Made by a program: the position numbers and the translations under genes. The notes under the pieces are model-generated. The model saw only the letters and a program-made list of their open reading frames with translations. It did not search any database and was not told the DNA's origin. This document shows, one piece after another, positions 2,383 through 55,143 of a DNA stretch of 64,000 nt. Within the stretch, counting starts at the first letter, position 1, and each line of letters begins with the position of its first letter. Source of the DNA: an uncultured Clostridia bacterium (lineage in GTDB: Bacteria; Bacillota; Clostridia; TANB77; CAG-508); the NCBI GenBank assembly GCA_928721565.1, contig OV788638.1:204348-268347 (forward strand), read 5' to 3'.

Positions 2383-3156
2383 TTAAATTTTTTCACATAT
2401 CAAGTTGATTACACTTTCCATAATTTCTTTATTGTCTAATTGATTATTTATATTTTCTGTAATGCAAATTAGCATTTTCTCTCCATCTTCAAAATATTCA
2501 TATGTTTGATATTCATCCATGTCCTCAAATGAATAATCCTGTATCTCTCCTGTAATTTCATCAATTATATAACATTTGCTTGATATTGTTATACTATATA
2601 TTTTTTTACCATTTATAACATTTTCAATTTTCTTATCATACTCATTCTGATTGCTTTTATCTTCTATTTTCAAATATCCATTTTTATCTATACTATATTT
2701 AGATAATGCTACACTCGATAAATATTTCAAAAATTCTGTTCTATCTTTTTCATAAATCCATATTCCTTTTTCTATTGGTTGATTGTTGTTTAAAAGATTA
2801 TCTAATTCTTCTTTTTCTGGTTTTGAATCTTTTATCATTCCAGCAAATGCGACCTTATATTTTATACTACTTTTTATTGTTGCAACTTTTGCATTATTAT
2901 CTCCATATTGTATTTCGTACAAGTCACTTTCACCTTGTTTTCCTGTTTCTTTTATTAATTCTTCTAACTGTTCTTGAGATATTTCTTCTTTTTCATTATT
3001 ATCTTCTTTTATCTCTTCCTTTATCTCTTCTTTTGCCTCTTCATCTTTTAAGATTATATTTTTATTCGACTTTTTCTTCACAAAAATCAAACTCAAAATC
3101 ATTCCTAAAAGCAATATAATTATTAATATTATTAATATCATTTTTTTATATTTCAT
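2383..3156 (-). CDS. Hypothetical protein with an N-terminal membrane anchor and a Glu/Lys-rich linker
   Basis: A TM segment MILIILIIILLLGMILSLIF is followed by an E/K-rich low-complexity stretch and a C-terminal globular region. No recognisable family. Confidence 0.4.
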   Translation of the reverse strand: MKYKKMILIILIIILLLGMILSLIFVKKKSNKNIILKDEEAKEEIKEEIKEDNNEKEEISQEQLEELIKETGKQGESDLYEIQYGDNNAKVATIKSSIKYKVAFAGMIKDSKPEKEELDNLLNNNQPIEKGIWIYEKDRTEFLKYLSSVALSKYSIDKNGYLKIEDKSNQNEYDKKIENVINGKKIYSITISSKCYIIDEITGEIQDYSFEDMDEYQTYEYFEDGEKMLICITENINNQLDNKEIMESVINLICEKI

Positions 3157-3203
3157 ATTTTATAATAAAAGGGTTACAAAATTATAACCCTTTGTTCCTT
3201 TCA

Positions 3204-5612
3204 TTAATTCATATTTCTAAGCATATCTAATGTTGCATTAATATATCTATTTGCAAAATTTTTATTCACAACTGACTGATGTCCTGTAACTCCTTGTTTT
3301 GGTAATTCTATTAATGCTGTTTTAGCTGCTCTATTTGTTGAACCTAAATAAGTTCTTCCCCATGCTATCATATATCCTGTTCCATATCTCCCAACAGACT
3401 TTTTATTATTTTCTGGAAATTGCCTATCATAATATGAACAAATTTCTTCATTGCCTATTAATTGTTGTGTCCATCCATGCAAATCAACTAGAAGTGTTTG
3501 TCCATTTTGTGATTTATTAGCCAACATAAAATTCCTTAACGTTTGTGCTTCATATGCTTGAAATCCAGCTGTTCCATTATAATTTCGGCTAGATGTAAAT
3601 CTTTGATATGAACTTCCTATTTGCCAACATCTATTCATGTCAATTCCTTTATTGTTAGGTGCTTGACTATATAGCGTTGTTCTTCCAGGTCCATTATTAG
3701 TCCATCCATTTGTTAATCCATCTTGATTAATACCTGGGAATATGTATATTGTCCATTTATCTGCCAAATCGTAATCTTTATCATTTAATAATTTATTATA
3801 AAATTGATTTGCAATATCAACTAATTCATATCCATCTCGACTCCATATATCCTCATACCCATGAATTGCAAATGTTGCAAAAAATACATTAGGTCCATTT
3901 CCATATTTTAAATAATTCAAATTATTTCCACCTTGCCCAGAAACCCTTAAACCTGTTTGTCCATATGTTCCTGATTGGTATTCTATTTTAGGTCTAATAT
4001 TTATATTAACTATTTTTTCTAATATCAAATTATTCTGTTTATCAAAGGCCTGAACCTTTAATACTCCTTTTGTGTTTGCTAGTTCGCTTAAATTTAATAT
4101 TGCTTCGAATCCAGGTAATGGATTATATTCTTTTCCTCCATAACCTTTTATTATTTCAAGTACATCATTTCTTGATGTTCTTGTTATCCCAGAATCAATT
4201 TTTTCATCATTAAATAATATCCTAATATTTACATTTTCAATATTAGTCATTAACCAGCCTTTAACCTTTACTTTTTCTGCTCCAACTTTGTTAGCTGGTT
4301 CGTCTATATACATAGTCACTCTGTCATGTGCAATTTTAGGTACTATTTTTATTTCTATTGCTTCTAGTCTTAGTCCTTTTTCTTCAGTTCCTGCAGTTTC
4401 TCCATCATTTGCCCAACCTTGCCATCCAACATCTTGTACTAGTACTCTATATTCAATGCTATATTCCTCTGTGTTTTCGATTTCTATCTTTATAGCCTCT
4501 ATTCTTTTGCTCTGCGATACCGTTCCTGCAATCTCTCCATTGTATTTCCAATCTTGCCAGCCTATATCTTGTACATGTACCCTATATTTTATTCTCATAT
4601 TATCAGTTGCATTAATTAAGTTTAATTTTATTGCTTCTATTCTTAGCAATCTTCCTTCTGTTCCTGCTTTTTCGCCATCTTTTTTCAAATTTTGCCACCC
4701 AATATCTTGCACATGTGCTGAATATGTTACATGAAGTTCTGTATCATAAAATATGTGTGATTCTAAAGTTCCTATTACTTTTCCTTTAGAATTTATTGTG
4801 TCAATTTTTATTATATGTTGACCTGCACTTAAATCTCTTGTATCAATTTCAAAACTATATTGTGGCATTAGATTCTGTTTAACAGTTCCATATCCTACTA
4901 CTCCTTTAATAACATCAGGTCTTTCTGCATATTTTATTCTATCTTCATCTAATTTTATTTGGTCAAAATAAGCTACTATCTTTGTATCTGAAACATCAGC
5001 CATTTTCCAACCAACTACATTTATTTTATCATTTTTATAATACACTGTTCCATCTTGTGCTTGATCCAAGTTCATTAAAACCTTAGCTCTTTTTTCTACT
5101 ATCTTTATTTCTATCGCTTCTAATCTTTTTAATTGTCCTTCTGTTCCTGCTGTCTCTCCATCATATTTCCAATCTTGCCATCCTATATCTTGGATATGTA
5201 CTCTATACATTATTGAATATTCTTCTGTTTCTTCTAATTCTATTTTTATCGCTTCTAATCTTTTAGATTGTCCTTCTGTTCCTGCTAATTCTCCATCATA
5301 TTTCCAGCCTTGCCATCCTATATCTTGTACATGTGTTTTATACTTTATTTTTATACCATCTGGCAAATTAGTTGAATTGATTTTTATTGCTTCTAATCTT
5401 TTAGATTGTCCTTCCGTTCCTGCCAATTCTCCATCATTTTTCCAACCTTGCCATCCGACATCTTGTACATGACAACTATATGTAACTCTAATATTTCCTT
5501 CCTCATACTCATTTCCTTGCACTTTCATCATTATAGCTATTTGCAATACAATTAAAAGCATTAATGCTTTTAACACTTTATACCCCTTATTATTTTTCAC
5601 TAAATATACCAC
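3204..5612 (-). CDS. Secreted ChW-repeat (clostridial hydrophobic W) protein with a C-terminal M14-like zinc carboxypeptidase / gamma-D-Glu-DAP peptidase domain
   Basis: A signal peptide is followed by at least 9 copies of a ~50-aa unit, Y..HVQDIGWQ.WK.DGE.AGT.G.SKRLEAIKI (the ChW consensus). The C-terminus has HGYE ... DLHGW, which resembles the M14 HxxE...H zinc ligands. Confidence 0.65.
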   Translation of the reverse strand: MVYLVKNNKGYKVLKALMLLIVLQIAIMMKVQGNEYEEGNIRVTYSCHVQDVGWQGWKNDGELAGTEGQSKRLEAIKINSTNLPDGIKIKYKTHVQDIGWQGWKYDGELAGTEGQSKRLEAIKIELEETEEYSIMYRVHIQDIGWQDWKYDGETAGTEGQLKRLEAIEIKIVEKRAKVLMNLDQAQDGTVYYKNDKINVVGWKMADVSDTKIVAYFDQIKLDEDRIKYAERPDVIKGVVGYGTVKQNLMPQYSFEIDTRDLSAGQHIIKIDTINSKGKVIGTLESHIFYDTELHVTYSAHVQDIGWQNLKKDGEKAGTEGRLLRIEAIKLNLINATDNMRIKYRVHVQDIGWQDWKYNGEIAGTVSQSKRIEAIKIEIENTEEYSIEYRVLVQDVGWQGWANDGETAGTEEKGLRLEAIEIKIVPKIAHDRVTMYIDEPANKVGAEKVKVKGWLMTNIENVNIRILFNDEKIDSGITRTSRNDVLEIIKGYGGKEYNPLPGFEAILNLSELANTKGVLKVQAFDKQNNLILEKIVNINIRPKIEYQSGTYGQTGLRVSGQGGNNLNYLKYGNGPNVFFATFAIHGYEDIWSRDGYELVDIANQFYNKLLNDKDYDLADKWTIYIFPGINQDGLTNGWTNNGPGRTTLYSQAPNNKGIDMNRCWQIGSSYQRFTSSRNYNGTAGFQAYEAQTLRNFMLANKSQNGQTLLVDLHGWTQQLIGNEEICSYYDRQFPENNKKSVGRYGTGYMIAWGRTYLGSTNRAAKTALIELPKQGVTGHQSVVNKNFANRYINATLDMLRNMN

Positions 5613-36534: not shown

Positions 36535-36611
36535 ATGGCTCCTCTTGTTGGACTCGAACCAACGACCTATCGGTTAACAGCCGAGCGCTCTACCAACTGA
36601 GCTAAAGAGGA
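36535..36611 (-). tRNA. tRNA-Asn (GUU)
   Basis: Reverse complement is TCCTCTTTAGCTCAGTTGGTAGAGC...CGGCTGTTAACCG...GGTTCGAGTCCAACAAGAGGAGCCA. Confidence 0.85.
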
Positions 36612-36620
36612 ATATATAAA

Positions 36621-36736
36621 ACTAGCAACAACCTATTTTCCCAGCAGGGTAACCCACAAGTATCTTCGGCACATTGGAGCTTGACTTCTGTGTTCGGGAT
36701 GGGAACAGGTATTTCCTCCATGTAATCGTCACTAGA
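36621..36736 (-). rRNA. rrf: 5S ribosomal RNA
   Basis: Reverse complement matches the Firmicute 5S rRNA: ...CCTGTTCCCATCCCGAACACAGAAGTCAAGCTC... Confidence 0.85.
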
Positions 36737-36910
36737 AAATTAATATCTACTTAATACGAATGTAATTATACTATACCTTTTTTTAAATTGCAATACTTTA
36801 TTAATATTTTTTACATTTTTTTTTAAATTATACACTATATTTACATTCAATAAAAGCACACTCAAAAATACATAGATGAAATTATATTAGAATTCTTTTT
36901 TAAAATTATA

Positions 36911-39778
<2,868 letters not shown>

Positions 39779-40023
39779 GTTTTCTAAAATTAAATCCTAA
39801 TTTTTTCAACTAGTTGTCTAGTTTACCTTATTTCATCTATATATTTTTCAATGTGCTTTCTTTGTAATTATAAACTTCGTATTACTGTGTCAAACTTCGT
39901 CATAATTTTTTCGATATATACAAGTATTATCTCAAAAATTCTTCCTTGTTTTCCTTACATTACTTGTTTATAATTTCCAACAACAATTTTTATTATTGTT
40001 TTGTGCTGTTTTAATAACAGCTT

Positions 40024-40100
40024 TGGTGGGCTCAAATGGAATCGAACCATCGACCTCATGCTTATCAGGCATGCGCTCTAACCATCTGAGCTATGAGCCC
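40024..40100 (-). tRNA. tRNA-Ile (GAU) in the 16S-23S spacer
   Basis: Reverse complement is GGGCTCATAGCTCAGATGGTTAGAGCGCATGCCTGATAAGCATGAGGTCGATGGTTCGATTCCATTTGAGCCCACCA. Confidence 0.85.
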
Positions 40101-40211
40101 ATATTTTAGAGTCTTGTCAAATGTGTTTCATTTGTATGAGCCTACTCTATTTCAAATGTACTAATTAAAGTACATTGAAAAATAAACAATAGATCCTTTA
40201 AATCCTTTTCT

Positions 40212-41750
<1,539 letters not shown>

Positions 41751-50255: not shown

Positions 50256-51364
50256 GGTTTGTCAAACATATGTCACACTTTATTGATGAATCTAGTGTTT
50301 CGTATACCAAATATGATATGTTGGCTCTACAATGCTTGAAATTCCTCATATTTCTCATTTGGACTTTTCCATCCTAATGGTTTCATTGGAAAGTTATTAT
50401 ACTCTCTTGACCAATGCCTTAATTTTTCTTTAAAATCTTCAAAACTTACAAATATTCTCTTGTAATAAAATCTTTCTTGATCCTTTCTATGACTTCTTTC
50501 TACTTTTCCGTTATGCCTTGGTGTCCTTGGTTTTATTAGTTTATGCTCTATTCCCATTTCTTCCATTCTCTTTTCAAACATTGTCTTCTCTTTTGCTTTT
50601 CTCGAATTTAGTCTATTTGTAAATTCAAATCCATTGTCTGTTTGTATACATTCTATTTTATATTTGAATTTCTTTATTATTATTTCTAAAAATTGTGTTG
50701 ATGCATAGGTACTATGTTCTTTGCTAGCCCATAATACTCTCTGCCTTGTATACTCATCTATTGCTGTATATTGATAATATTTCTCTTCTAGCTCTTTCAA
50801 TTCATTTGACATACATTTCTGTGGCACATATTTTACATCTATTTGTATTCTTTCTCCTGGATGACTCATTTTCTGATATGGTTTTGGTTCATATTTTTTC
50901 TTTTTACTTGGTGCTTTTTTATATATTCCTAGTCTTTGCATCACCCTATACAAACTCGTTATTTGCCTTGTATATCCGTTTCTTATCAATTTTATCCACA
51001 ATACCACTAACCCTGCGTCTGGGTTTTGAGCTTTATATTTCTTTATCATTTTTATTTCTTCCTGTGTATGTTGATTTGGGTGTGAATGTGGTCTTCTTGA
51101 TTTATTCACTAATGATTTTCTACTTCCATCATATTTTTCTCTCCATCTATATATTGTTTTTCTATGCTGTTTATATCTTTTCGCTGCTTCTGTCACTCCG
51201 TGTTTTAATGAATATTCTACAACTGATTGCTTAAATATTATATCTTGTGTTATACTATTCATAGGAAATACCTTCTTTCGATATTAGTTTTGTGGTAAAA
51301 ACATTATATCATATTGGTATTTCCTTTTTTTATTCTTTAGTGTGACATATCTATTGTAAACCTA
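50256..51364 (-). mobile_element. IS481-family insertion sequence (about 1.1 kb, single transposase ORF) with roughly 26-bp imperfect terminal inverted repeats
   Basis: IRL is taggtttgtcaaacatatgtcacact. The reverse complement of IRR is taggtttacaatagatatgtcacact. The element is flanked by identical 27-bp direct repeats. Confidence 0.7.
50327..51262 (-). CDS. IS481-family DDE transposase (N-terminal HTH plus rve integrase core)
   Basis: D-D-E triad context IQIDVKYVP / IQTDNGFEF / HNGKVERSHR, with an N-terminal HTH KTIYRWREKYDG. Confidence 0.8.
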   Translation of the reverse strand: MNSITQDIIFKQSVVEYSLKHGVTEAAKRYKQHRKTIYRWREKYDGSRKSLVNKSRRPHSHPNQHTQEEIKMIKKYKAQNPDAGLVVLWIKLIRNGYTRQITSLYRVMQRLGIYKKAPSKKKKYEPKPYQKMSHPGERIQIDVKYVPQKCMSNELKELEEKYYQYTAIDEYTRQRVLWASKEHSTYASTQFLEIIIKKFKYKIECIQTDNGFEFTNRLNSRKAKEKTMFEKRMEEMGIEHKLIKPRTPRHNGKVERSHRKDQERFYYKRIFVSFEDFKEKLRHWSREYNNFPMKPLGWKSPNEKYEEFQAL

Positions 51365-53368: not shown

Positions 53369-53568
53369 TATGAGCTCACATCCCTTCTAAATTCATTTTT
53401 AAAGTGACAATTAAATTATACTATAGTTACATATTTATGTCAAGTGCAATAGAATTTTGAATGGACAATATGTAAAAAAGTTATTTTTTTTCGTTTTTTC
53501 TATTGACAAATTATAATAAAGATATTATAATAGTCATTGTCGTAAGACATTGCCAGATTATAACACAT

Positions 53569-53657
53569 GCAGATGTGGCGGAACTGGCAGACGCACAGGA
53601 CTTAAAATCCTGCGGTGGTTAAACACCGTGCCGGTTCGATTCCGGCCATCTGCACCA
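53569..53657 (+). tRNA. tRNA-Leu (UAA), with a long variable arm
   Basis: GCAGATGTGGCGGAACTGGCAGACGC...GGACTTAAAATCC...CCGGTTCGATTCCGGCCATCTGCACCA. Confidence 0.85.
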
Positions 53658-53660
53658 AGA

Positions 53661-53692
53661 AAAAGATTATCATTAGATAATCTTTTTTATTT
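53661..53692 (+). terminator. Terminator after tRNA-Leu (copy 1 of a duplicated roughly 45-bp segment)
   Basis: aagattatc-atta-gataatctt followed by ttttatttt. Confidence 0.6.
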
Positions 53693-53806
53693 TATATAAA
53701 CGTTCGGAATCGAAAAGGAAGTTGCCAAGCTTCGTGCTGGTCTGGAGCCAGCCGAAGCGTAGGTAAAAATAATCCTGCGGATTATTTTTCTGACGCGGCT
53801 TGTCGT

Positions 53807-53825
53807 ATTCCGGCCATCTGCACCA
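53807..53825 (+). repeat. 19-bp perfect copy of the tRNA-Leu 3' end (attccggccatctgcacca), embedded in a roughly 55-bp degenerate copy of the tRNA 3' half
   Basis: Identical to 53639..53657. Upstream, aatcctgcgg also matches the tRNA anticodon and variable-arm region. Confidence 0.8.
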
Positions 53826-54380
53826 ATGACGTATCTGTTCGAACTTTTTAGAACAGATGATATGAAAATCAATCAGTAAAATGGTTGATTTCTTTCTTTT
53901 GCAAAAAATCATCCTAAAATTACAATGAAAGGATGGTGCTTGAAATGAAGATAATTAAGCAAGAACTAGAATTTGAAGAATGTCTAAAACAACGCTCGGA
54001 ATTTATATGTGAATTTTCTAAAGTTACTCCTACTTTTATCAATGGTAGTATAATGTTTTATTTCAATTTTGCTGAAGATAACTCTGCTTTCAGTAGCTGT
54101 TAAGCCAGTAAAATTGCAAGTTAATTTTATAAATTTTAGCTCAGTGAGATAAAGGAAATGGAAACAACAGAACAAAATAAAGTTACATTGTATTTGTTTA
54201 ATAATATAAAAGTTATCTAATACACATTTAGCACAAAAAAATTCAAGTACAAATATAAAAAATACTTGAAAAATCAGCTCAAAAATGATAAGATATTTAT
54301 GTTAATTTCTTTTTAATCCTGTTTTTTAGATTAACATATAACTTCAATAGTAAAATTATTATTTTAAGGAGGAAAAACAA

Positions 54381-54749
54381 ATGTTAAGCGAAAAGAATCT
54401 TCGGGAAATCAAGGAATATGAGGAAGCTGGTATTGATGTTGTTGCCATAGGCAGTCATGGAACACTAGATTACTCTACTAAAGGCATGGGGGGCTGTGAA
54501 TATTGCGACCAGTGTAGTGACTTTAGGTTACTTCCTGATCCTGATCCATTCGATTGGTTCAGGAACGGCGATATGAAGGCAGTATGCCTTGAGGTTAATG
54601 GAGTAATTGAAGGCTCTCTTGAGAGACCTAGCGAATGGACTAATATTCGCAAACCTCTCTACTGCCCTAAACTCGGTCGTGAACTGAGTGAAGAAGAAAA
54701 GAAAACAGCAGCTGAAAGTCTGAAATGGGCAAAAGAAATGATGAAGTGA
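54381..54749 (+). CDS. GC-elevated Cys-rich orphan protein (122 aa); possibly metal or Fe-S binding (CxxCxxC...CP)
   Basis: AGGAGG lies 8 nt upstream of the ATG. About 42 % GC against roughly 27 % background. Motifs GMGGCEYCDQC and later LYCP. It sits inside a segment bracketed by duplicated tRNA-Leu end and terminator sequence. Confidence 0.5.
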   Translation: MLSEKNLREIKEYEEAGIDVVAIGSHGTLDYSTKGMGGCEYCDQCSDFRLLPDPDPFDWFRNGDMKAVCLEVNGVIEGSLERPSEWTNIRKPLYCPKLGRELSEEEKKTAAESLKWAKEMMK

Positions 54750-54956
54750 AGATAACTTTTCACATCGACAAGAGAGATGTTGCTTTATACAACATCTCTT
54801 TTAGTATAAATACTAACATTTCTTAATTATTATGTTAGTATAAAATTTTAAATTTGTATTGCATTTTAGCAAAAATATGAGATACTTTAGTAAATTGATT
54901 AATATTTGTATCAATCGTTAAAGTTGTGAAAAAAGTTGTAGATATCTACGTTGTTC

Positions 54957-55000
54957 GCACCAAGAAAGATTATCATTAGATAATCTTTTTTTATTTTACA
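54957..55000 (+). repeat. Second copy of the tRNA-Leu terminal gcacca plus its terminator hairpin (direct repeat of 53652..53696)
   Basis: gcaccaagaaagattatcattagataatctttttttatttt matches gcaccaagaaaaagattatcattagataatcttttttatttt. Confidence 0.8.
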
Positions 55001-55143
55001 CTATCATTAAAAGTGCTTAATAGCATATATATTACTAGAAAAACGATGGCTTACCTATTAAGTCATCGTTTTTCTAAAATTAAAGTTTTCCAAAAAAAAT
55101 TACACACTTTACTTGACAAAGTCTAAAACTCCCCTTTATAAAT

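Follow-up and report, generated by a model that had tools for sequence, protein, structure and literature searches.

Structure of the tRNA-Leu(UAA) locus

We analysed the DNA downstream of a tRNA-Leu(UAA) gene in a 64,000-nucleotide stretch of contig OV788638.1 from an uncultured Clostridia bacterium; the whole stretch is called the window here, and coordinates are window positions. An earlier reading of the letters alone (the original prediction) had described direct repeats of about 45 bp around a GC-rich gene for a cysteine-containing protein, and had read the arrangement as the trace of one or two integrative elements that target the tRNA and have since decayed, or of a non-autonomous element mobilized in trans. 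That proposal proved essentially right and can now be made specific. The locus carries two layers, an inner structured unit of ~170 bp (T1-C-D, 53658–53826) and an outer 1.1-kb element (X, 53826–54962) with a single gene for a 122-aa protein as its cargo, and it is probable, in our judgement strongly so, that mobile DNA has docked serially at the tRNA 3′ end and that these two non-autonomous layers are what remains of it. The docking site consists of the last tRNA bases GCACCA and the next A. The features are as follows, with the basis of each assignment; other loci and contigs are referred to by L numbers.

53503–53531 (+): tRNA-Leu promoter, TTGACA-17-TATAAT, sigma-70 type, 12/12 match to consensus
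53569–53657 (+): tRNA-Leu(UAA) (taa), CCA encoded; ARAGORN, Rfam tRNA 59.3 bits
53658–53696 (+): T1, terminator-like hairpin AAAAAGATTATC/GATAATCTTTTT and T run; inverted and direct repeats
53700–53806 (+): C block, GC-rich structured segment; homologous units, covariation
53807–53826 (+): D, perfect 20-nt copy of the tRNA 3′ end from the T loop; direct repeat
53820–53826 (+): attL (left attachment) core GCACCAA in D; junction ...CCATCTGCACCA/ATGACGTATCTG
53826–53932 (+): E block, conserved left end of X, reading ATGACGTATCTGTTCGAAC...; hairpin ATCTGTTC/GAACAGAT, then a terminator-like hairpin (ATCAATCAG.../...TGGTTGAT and T run)
53933–54103 (+): chimeric 56-aa open reading frame (ORF); tblastn, DNA mapping onto L068
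~54065–54115 (+): C-terminal remnant of o140; blastn, L068 5211–5264, 81%
54124–54221 (+): 3′-end remnant of a small ORF; blastn, L073 11028–11126, 75%
54251–54380 (+): cargo expression leader with promoter, 5′ untranslated region (UTR) hairpin and AAGGAGG ribosome-binding site (RBS)
54381–54749 (+): cargo gene, 122-aa acidic protein; C42, C45, C69 and C95-P96 invariant, DPDPxDxF...DxK motif
54770–54802 (+): terminator hairpin of the cargo gene; inverted repeat, kept in homologous loci
54850–54962 (+): R block, conserved right end of X; homology, 17 distinct copies
54957–55000 (+): attR (right attachment) core GCACCAA (54957–54963) and T1′, the second terminator copy; copy 2 of the outer direct repeat
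55001–55125 (no strand): ~125-bp segment with a hairpin at 55036–55076; absent from L011 and L016, present in L012

The outer direct repeats are real and non-random. The two copies, 53652–53696 (T1 together with the upstream GCACCA at 53652–53657) and 54957–55000, read GCACCAAGAAA(AA)GATTATCATTAGATAATCTTTTTT(T)ATTTTA and differ solely in two homopolymer lengths (A5 versus A3, T6 versus T7), and for their 25-nt core the 64 kb contain exactly two occurrences, where 100 shuffles predict none. The perfect inner copy of the tRNA 3′ end (ATTCCGGCCATCTGCACCAA, at 53639–53658 and 53807–53826) is likewise present, with a length of 20 nt where 19 bp had been given, and again has two copies in the 64 kb against none expected from shuffles. 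The predicted GC elevation was also borne out, at ~43% over 53600–53900 and 40–45% across the 122-aa ORF (43% for the ORF itself), compared with 29.6% for the window. We found no E, R or C block downstream of the window’s other six tRNA genes.

X has the ends of elements that carry a large serine recombinase

Homology between X and loci of other species starts at the base following the internal CCA, with block E (ATGACGTATCTGTTCGAAC...), and ends at about 54962–54968, at or just past ...GTTGTTCGCACCA, in unrelated contexts (L001–6, L022, L024, L030 and L031). The junction type ...CCATCTGCACCA/ATGACGTATCTG is the same as at 29 other left ends, giving 30 distinct junctions behind six different tRNA species and short tRNA-end fragments; elsewhere E lies directly after the CCA of tRNA-Leu(UAG), Leu(CAA), Arg(CCU), Arg(ACG) and Thr(CGU), and after tRNA-end fragments. 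At the other end, the R block comprises a promoter-like TTGTAT (54854–54859)-16-TATGAG (TATGAT in relatives), a palindrome ATTGAT...ATCAAT at 54894–54915, a hairpin GTAGATATCTAC at 54938–54949, seven variable nucleotides and the terminal GCACCA at 54957–54962. A possible 4-bp helix (GCYR/YRGC) before ACCA shows weak covariation, with 11 of 500 shuffles as good, and Rfam 15 returned nothing credible over 54850–54962.

Intact elements with the same ends, which the original prediction had suggested searching for together with an integrase, were found (L068, L069, L073 and L025), and their integrase is of the serine type. In the IMG/VR contigs L068–L075 the gene order is E, F93 (93 aa), a large serine recombinase, o140 (140 aa) and a Mob_Pre relaxase, while complete relatives overall run from E through the 93-aa gene, a recombinase of ~490 aa, the 140-aa gene, a MobV relaxase, a small ORF and a cargo slot to R. 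Pfam matches in these relatives were Resolvase (3e-32), Recombinase (4e-19) and Mob_Pre (3e-12). In the two collections searched, none of the phage or plasmid serine recombinases that matched shared more than 29% identity with that of these relatives. Both E and R are carried by L073 and L069, and an R block is also found in L055. At the end of a tRNA-Gly gene, L025 is an element of ~6 kb with recombinase, relaxase and, just inside its right end, the 122-aa gene. The large serine recombinase is the only recombinase of the intact copies and lies ~600 nt from their left end, from which we infer that it catalyses insertion after CCA.

The interior of X retains fragments of this gene set. Codons 1–40 of the 56-aa ORF (53933–54052) correspond to the N-terminus of F93 (residues 1–40, 87.5%, E = 3e-19 by tblastn) and are joined at 54052/54053 to residues 47–58 of o140 (91.7% identity, tblastn), so that the 56-aa ORF is best read as the scar of a ~2-kb deletion. 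The piece at 54065–54221, which covers the o140 and small-ORF remnants, also occurs in L022–L024 and L033. Thus, the two micro-ORFs noted earlier are present but are remnants of deleted element genes, not genes in their own right. The predicted lack of an integrase also held, as we found no Resolvase/Recombinase or Mob_Pre homologue in 53826–54962 or in the rest of the 64-kb window. Judged as an integrative and mobilizable element (IME), X therefore has attL and attR with a short core at a specific target and has neither a recombinase nor a relaxase of its own; judged as a cis-mobilizable element (CIME), it has lost integration and transfer genes, retains both att junctions by sequence and derives from an IME by deletion.

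The core shared by attL and attR is 7–8 nt long and varies between elements, being GCACCAA in the window, CGCTCCAA in L073, GGTACCAA in L069 and CGCTCCAT in L025. At attL, the junction has the T-loop TTCGA ~19–23 nt to its left and the E-block TCGAA 14–18 nt to its right, roughly symmetric about CCA; this dyad is of the sort that a serine recombinase dimer might read. The TTCGA-TCGAA motif is not shared by R ends, and the co-varying core is longer than expected for a large serine recombinase, whose att sites span ~40–50 bp with imperfect dyad symmetry around a 2-bp crossover.

The inner layer is a recurrent structured unit

We found that the segment between T1 and D, previously described as a degenerate copy of the tRNA 3′ half, is instead a structured block that is conserved and also present behind other tRNAs. 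In the C block, CGGAATCGAA at 53704–53713 is the reverse complement of the T-loop/T-stem sequence TTCGATTCCG of the tRNA, and is followed by a long GC hairpin (~53721–53763), an A-tract/hairpin/T-tract (53765–53789) and the invariant GACGCGGC at 53792–53799. The whole ~170-bp unit, with its structured block of ~105 nt, is found in other gut Clostridia in the order terminator, reverse complement of the local T loop and T stem, GAAAAGGA, long GC hairpin, A-tract/hairpin/T-tract, GACGCGGC and the last 20 nt of the tRNA. The further occurrences are listed here.

L028 and L032: T1-C-D unit after tRNA-Leu(CAA)
L146: unit after tRNA-Leu(UAA), with D from tRNA-Leu(UAG), followed by an E-type element
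L131: unit after tRNA-Phe, with D from another tRNA
L112: T1-C-D tandem array
L092, L040 and L055: partial units

A consensus fold of C-D pairs 93.4% of cells with 11 compensatory pairs, and none of 500 shuffles was as good; slid controls reached at most 53% paired, and the fold z-score was −2.97. Rfam over 53700–53826 and over the units of L092, L112, L131 and L146 gave no family, with only the tRNA passing. Neither a tRNA, a piece of transfer-messenger RNA (tmRNA) nor an Rfam family fits the unit, and a match to permuted tmRNA (E = 0.29) is noise. A coding function for the C block was also rejected, as its AAGGAGG lacks spacing to a start codon and its changes are compensatory and not synonymous. 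A loose pattern, TCGAAAAGGA-N60–85-GACGCGGC, gave mostly chance matches and was genuine only in L092, L112, L131 and L146. Within IMG/VR, two scans for C-block motifs came back empty, and a third, with a looser pattern, gave 48 matches that were discarded as chance. We found no tyrosine integrase linked to the C block, and a literature search for ‘tRNA-linked repeats’ turned up only Entamoeba papers. The unit could have originated as a miniature integrative element, by unequal crossing-over, or as a functional RNA or single-stranded DNA structure.

The inner layer also explains the outer repeat. When X is removed from the window, the remaining order tRNA(D)-T1-C-D-T1′ is exactly the arrangement of L131, and the 45-bp repeat is therefore not the att site of a single element but a composite of two layers, in which ~7 bp (GCACCAA) are the attachment core of X and the terminator part is the duplicated terminator of the older, inner unit. 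The structure is genuinely nested, since X lies inside the distal repeat.

Conspecific contigs differ at the site

Ten conspecific contigs (L011–L020), in which the encoded NTPase is identical to that of the window and the flanks are 95–99.7% identical, allowed alleles of the site to be compared. L011, L012 and L016 come from metagenomes ERZ15609952, ERZ28614571 and ERZ28619659. In L016 the tRNA and T1 are followed at once by the 3′ UTR of the convergent GTPase gene, and this empty site, with the same terminator directly 3′ of the tRNA and in one copy only, is what the original prediction had expected of relatives without the insert. In L011, tRNA-T1-C-D is followed by the GTPase 3′ UTR and the 1.1-kb part is missing. 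L012 has the full window arrangement. In a fourth allele, L019, a different element takes the place of the 3′ third of the tRNA. The ~125-bp segment at 55001–55125 is confined to alleles with the 1.1-kb element, and its hairpin at 55036–55076 is likely the terminator of the convergent GTPase gene. Five of the ten contigs (L013–L015, L017 and L018) stop within tRNA-Leu, and L020 stops just upstream of it. Assemblers typically break contigs at branching sites, and the breaks suggest several alleles, or repeated copies of the tRNA end, per sample. An exact look-up of the window’s GTPase gene and a JGI metagenome scan for the GTPase-side junction gave no match.

In L019, the 3′ part of the tRNA is swapped for CCGTACCGGTTCGATTCCGGTCTTCGGCACCA, followed by foreign DNA, and the contig ends before the element becomes identifiable. 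The new acceptor strand, CTTCGGC, has two mismatches against the 5′ strand GCAGATG; this element may have damaged the tRNA, with a crossover probably upstream of the T arm. In L011, two inserted RhuM-family genes (2681–3549) separate the GTPase gene from its neighbour, so that a span of 2 kb holds a second polymorphic site.

Probable movement of X between species and serial accretion of related elements

A copy of the decayed patchwork is present in L021, where it is 97.8% identical over 721 bp and lies behind tRNA-Leu(CAA), nested one deletion further. Identity to the window is 70% in the single adjacent housekeeping stretch that we compared from this genome. This supports a recent transfer of the non-autonomous element, which may have occurred in trans or with a helper.

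Other loci show how such elements are stacked. An R end is followed directly by an E start in L055, and in L030 an array of three R blocks separates two promoter-equipped cassettes. E starts also follow R ends or presumed phage right ends that carry 11–14 nt of tRNA-like sequence (L055, L039, L052 and L062–L065); the DNA upstream of the tRNA 3′ fragments in the IMG/VR contigs is presumed to be prophage because these contigs come from a viral collection. That R and presumed phage ends are followed by E starts suggests that each insertion leaves a reusable tRNA-like end. Such tandem accretion is known from IMEs and CIMEs (PMC5704250) and from tycheposon islands (10.1101/2020.12.28.424599).

A model for the origin of the locus

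The reading that we favour starts from what is directly seen, namely how the locus is built, that it is homologous to intact elements, that strains differ in the insertion and that a copy in another species is nearly identical. In this model, a serine recombinase, as the likely enzyme, would join a circular form to the chromosome right after the CCA of the tRNA, with a crossover presumably within the common 7–8-bp core, GCACCAA here. The tRNA would be kept intact, the left end would supply a new terminator and the right end would regenerate a tRNA-like ...GCACCA. A ~2-kb deletion would then have fused codon 40 of F93 to codon 47 of o140 and removed the recombinase, and further deletions would have removed the relaxase, leaving in X both ends and one promoter-equipped cargo gene. 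Having neither enzyme, X could consequently be mobile only via a related element in trans or by co-transfer with a neighbour, and its behaviour would be CIME-like, with mobilization in trans the presumed route. X would have docked after D, the second copy of the tRNA 3′ end, which belongs to the inner layer; since D is part of the T1-C-D unit, the terminator would be found duplicated on both sides of X. The predicted circular (attP) junction of X is ...CTACGTTGTTCGCACCAATGACGTATCTGTTCG and the predicted X-less junction is ...CCATCTGCACCAAGAAAGATTATC.

Several observations weigh against this model. No excised circle or attP junction of the window element was observed, and the sole R–E junction, in L055, could reflect a tandem arrangement and not a circle. 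The recombinase ORF is split in some of the ‘intact’ relatives (L063/L068 and L025), which may themselves be decaying. Serine recombinases require just 2 bp of identity, and a co-varying core of 7–8 bp is unexplained by their known chemistry. The L021 copy is without the terminal part of R, so that its mode of integration cannot be read from both ends, and L007–L010 share the E block and the gene and are missing the R block. Finally, L011 and L016 are not clean reciprocals of the window, and L011 is also without T1′ and the 125-bp segment, so that no single order of events can be reconstructed.

We weighed three other explanations. Both layers could be remnants of tyrosine-integrase elements, such as a prophage or an integrative and conjugative element (ICE), that crossed over in the T loop, with the homology to serine-recombinase elements being incidental cargo. 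Identity from the T loop to CCA, as in the 20-nt block D, is typical of tyrosine integrases that cross over in the T loop; Phage_integrase fragments lie between tRNA-Arg and the 122-aa gene in L001–L006; and the L019 element did replace the 3′ third of the tRNA. However, the ends of X are those of the family in which the large serine recombinase near the left end stands alone, the junction lies after CCA and not in the T loop, and the window, like the C-block loci, yielded no tyrosine integrase. Moreover, the ~170-bp T1-C-D miniature is alike at five or more loci, which independent decay would not produce. We thus regard a tyrosine-integrase origin as unlikely. A local tandem duplication of the tRNA 3′ end and terminator, with unrelated DNA drifting in between and no mobile element, would fit the D and terminator repeats that flank the C block in the window (with X removed), in L131 and in the L112 array, and unequal crossing-over could expand such repeats. 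It would not account for an enclosed 1.1 kb that is homologous, with identical boundaries, to mobile elements at other tRNAs and in other species, nor for L146 and L131, in which D comes from a tRNA other than the adjacent one, an outcome impossible by local duplication. The original prediction had held this explanation in reserve for a site without size polymorphism and without a homologous att-bearing element, and both exist: because the site is polymorphic in presence and absence, intact relatives are found and the cross-species copy is 98% identical against 70% for its surroundings, tandem duplication is refuted for the second layer, and as an account of the locus it is extremely improbable.

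The remaining explanation makes the 122-aa gene an ordinary, immobile chromosomal gene beside a tRNA hotspot, with islands inserting between the two. In its favour, the gene invariably lies at the distal end of the tRNA-linked region and is under purifying selection. Yet it stands behind about nine tRNA species (Leu-UAA, -CAA, -UAG and -GAG; Arg-ACG and -CCU; Gly-UCC; Thr; Asp) and its downstream genes are wholly different each time, conspecific strains without it exist, it sits inside the complete recombinase-bearing element L025, and its GC content of 39–43% exceeds that of every host locus examined (26–29%). This makes an immobile gene very unlikely. Two other mechanisms were also rejected. 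Insertion of the HUH or IS200-IS605 type was considered because the target motif NCCA borders the left end and also closes the right one, but there is no Y1 transposase, the end hairpins are dissimilar and the intact copies have a serine recombinase. Integron cassettes do not fit, as there is no IntI, the cassettes have their own promoters and R blocks are not single long imperfect hairpins; only the serial accretion is alike.

Beyond the serial-docking model itself, we put forward a more speculative extension, which taken as a whole we consider rather doubtful. The ends of these elements may be portable mimics of the tRNA acceptor end, such that each insertion renews the docking port and cassettes accrete by serine recombinase in an integron-like manner, with T1-C-D a miniature element or decoy port. 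The R mimic would consist of a stem, 7 nt and (G)C-N-CCA, and the T1-C-D mimic of the 20-nt tRNA 3′ end presented in a conserved three-way fold. In this extension T1-C-D would divert incoming elements from the functional tRNA, possibly as RNA or as single-stranded DNA in conjugative entry.

Relation to known mobile elements

The locus is an ordinary class of genomic scar, and what it adds is an undescribed family within a known class. Like the CIMEs and other remnants of IMEs and ICEs in tRNA accretions of Firmicutes, X stands in tandem at a tRNA 3′ end and derives from an IME by deletion. It differs from CIMEs in that its parent has a large serine recombinase and inserts after CCA, replacing no 3′ segment of the tRNA, and in that its mobility is deduced from comparative data alone. 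CIMEs have been defined together with a three-step accretion scenario (PMC5704250), and CIME and IME remnants are described in gut Firmicutes (PMC12084326).

The intact relatives share with the IMEs Tn4451/Tn4453 (TnpX, MobV TnpZ) a small clostridial element of 2–6 kb with a large serine recombinase, a Mob_Pre/MobV relaxase and cargo, while gene order and the accessory genes (F93 and o140) differ. The Tn4451 circle has a junction promoter, and the promoter-like site at the right end of the present family points across the junction towards the recombinase. Whereas Tn4451 has low target specificity and a 2-bp crossover, the present family is found only after ...NCCA of tRNAs or their mimics and has a 7–8-bp core. 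Very short direct repeats at the ends are likewise found in Tn4451-type IMEs (PMC5704250). According to the same 2017 review, site-specific IMEs with serine recombinases usually target the interior of protein genes, and tyrosine recombinases are the typical enzymes at tRNA 3′ ends (PMC5704250).

A further likeness is to the tycheposons of Prochlorococcus (10.1101/2020.12.28.424599), which are tRNA-anchored islands where successive integrations push older elements outward, and which include partial tRNAs, degenerated elements, cargo-only modules and a minority with large serine recombinases. The present family belongs to another phylum and has other genes, lacks a replication module here, is mobilizable by conjugation (MobV) and has repeats of only the last 6–20 nt of the tRNA. 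For T1-C-D, the closest parallel is the tRNA-linked repeats at E. coli tyrT, which are 178-bp units that each contain the last ~19 nt of tRNA-Tyr. Compared by description only, both are units of similar size (~170 bp for T1-C-D) that end in the last 20 nt or so of the tRNA, lie directly downstream of it and can occur in tandem (L112), but the clostridial unit has a conserved compensatory fold and an inverted T-loop copy and is associated with several different tRNAs.

For annotation, a repeat puzzle becomes two stacked non-autonomous elements at a tRNA hotspot, and the gene leaves the orphan list. The comparison also exposes an unrecorded small serine-recombinase/MobV family of uncultured gut Clostridia that docks at the CCA of many tRNAs and at the tRNA-like right ends of its own members, which is relevant to how gut Firmicutes assemble variable islands. 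Its recombinases may interest those who seek serine recombinases whose natural targets are short, conserved and present in many copies. Further points of interest are the type of recombinase and its target, tRNA-like ends that renew themselves, a structured unit that recurs and a widespread, uncharacterized four-cysteine ‘DPDP’ protein of mobile elements and phages.

The cargo gene encodes a widespread protein of gut Clostridia

The 122-aa gene is strongly RBS-led, as predicted, with AAGGAGG ~8 nt upstream, and its promoter at 54266–54294 is TTGAAA-17-(TG)TAAGAT with an extended −10. In more than 10 species the leader is conserved together with the gene, and in L030 and L112 it is reused before other cargo ORFs. 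A promoter and 5′ leader (...TAATCCTGTTTT.CAGGTT...ATTATTTTAAGGAGG) is common to the 122-aa gene, an 80-aa ORF and an ORF for a 64-aa membrane protein, as compared across L030 1–1900, L112 290–600 and window 54251–54380; this shared leader looks like a reusable expression cassette with swapped ORFs.

The orphan label does not hold for this gene. By a word-indexed search we obtained at least 145 homologue clusters of ~122 aa, 58–94% identical and none with Pfam domains, and an exhaustive profile search of 1.84 billion representatives gave 119 small clusters (50% identity level) with a conserved core at residues ~36–100; the fusion partners in the latter, NUDIX and an aminotransferase fragment, were uninformative. 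In the alignment, D53, D58, F60, D64 and K66 are conserved in addition to the cysteines. The ratio of nonsynonymous to synonymous substitution rates (dN/dS) against diverged homologues is 0.07–0.18. Among the closest homologues, L021 differs by five nonsynonymous and no synonymous changes and L024 has a dN/dS of ~2.1, from small counts in both; this excess of amino-acid changes could reflect recent diversifying or relaxed selection.

We found the gene in 33 species-level genomes, all of them uncultured gut Clostridia from human, rabbit and mouse. In 17 of 17 locus groups with an upstream tRNA, the gene is downstream of the tRNA and on the same strand, at a distance of 0.2–9 kb, and the tRNAs at these other loci are Leu-CAA, Leu-UAG, Leu-GAG, Arg-ACG, Arg-CCU, Gly-UCC and Asp. 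Several further loci with 5–10 kb of upstream sequence have no tRNA there. Downstream genes are unrelated between loci, variable islands lie between tRNA and gene, and the gene differs in GC content (39–43%) from the host loci examined (26–29%).

The 122-aa protein gave no match in Pfam, NCBIfam, PADLOC or PDB sequences, and no fold neighbour was found. PHROGs returned one weak match, to the function-unknown family phrog_1494 (E = 0.0056), and BFVD only two uncharacterized gut-phage proteins at 37% identity. The pattern CxxC...DPDPxD...C...CP suggests a small metal-binding domain carried on mobile elements. A 4Fe-4S reading (CxxCxxC...CP) was rejected, as C39 is not conserved, and a PD-(D/E)xK mini-nuclease (E14, D53, D64-x-K66) had no fold support and is not claimed.

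Other features of the region

A gene for a 311-aa DDE transposase (HTH_28, rve and rve_3) lies at 50327–51262 on the (−) strand, 2.3 kb upstream of tRNA-Leu; it is an insertion sequence and has no relation to the tRNA-linked elements. Further upstream, also on the (−) strand, the window contains a complete rRNA operon at 36536–41743, with 16S, tRNA-Ile, 23S, 5S and tRNA-Asn.

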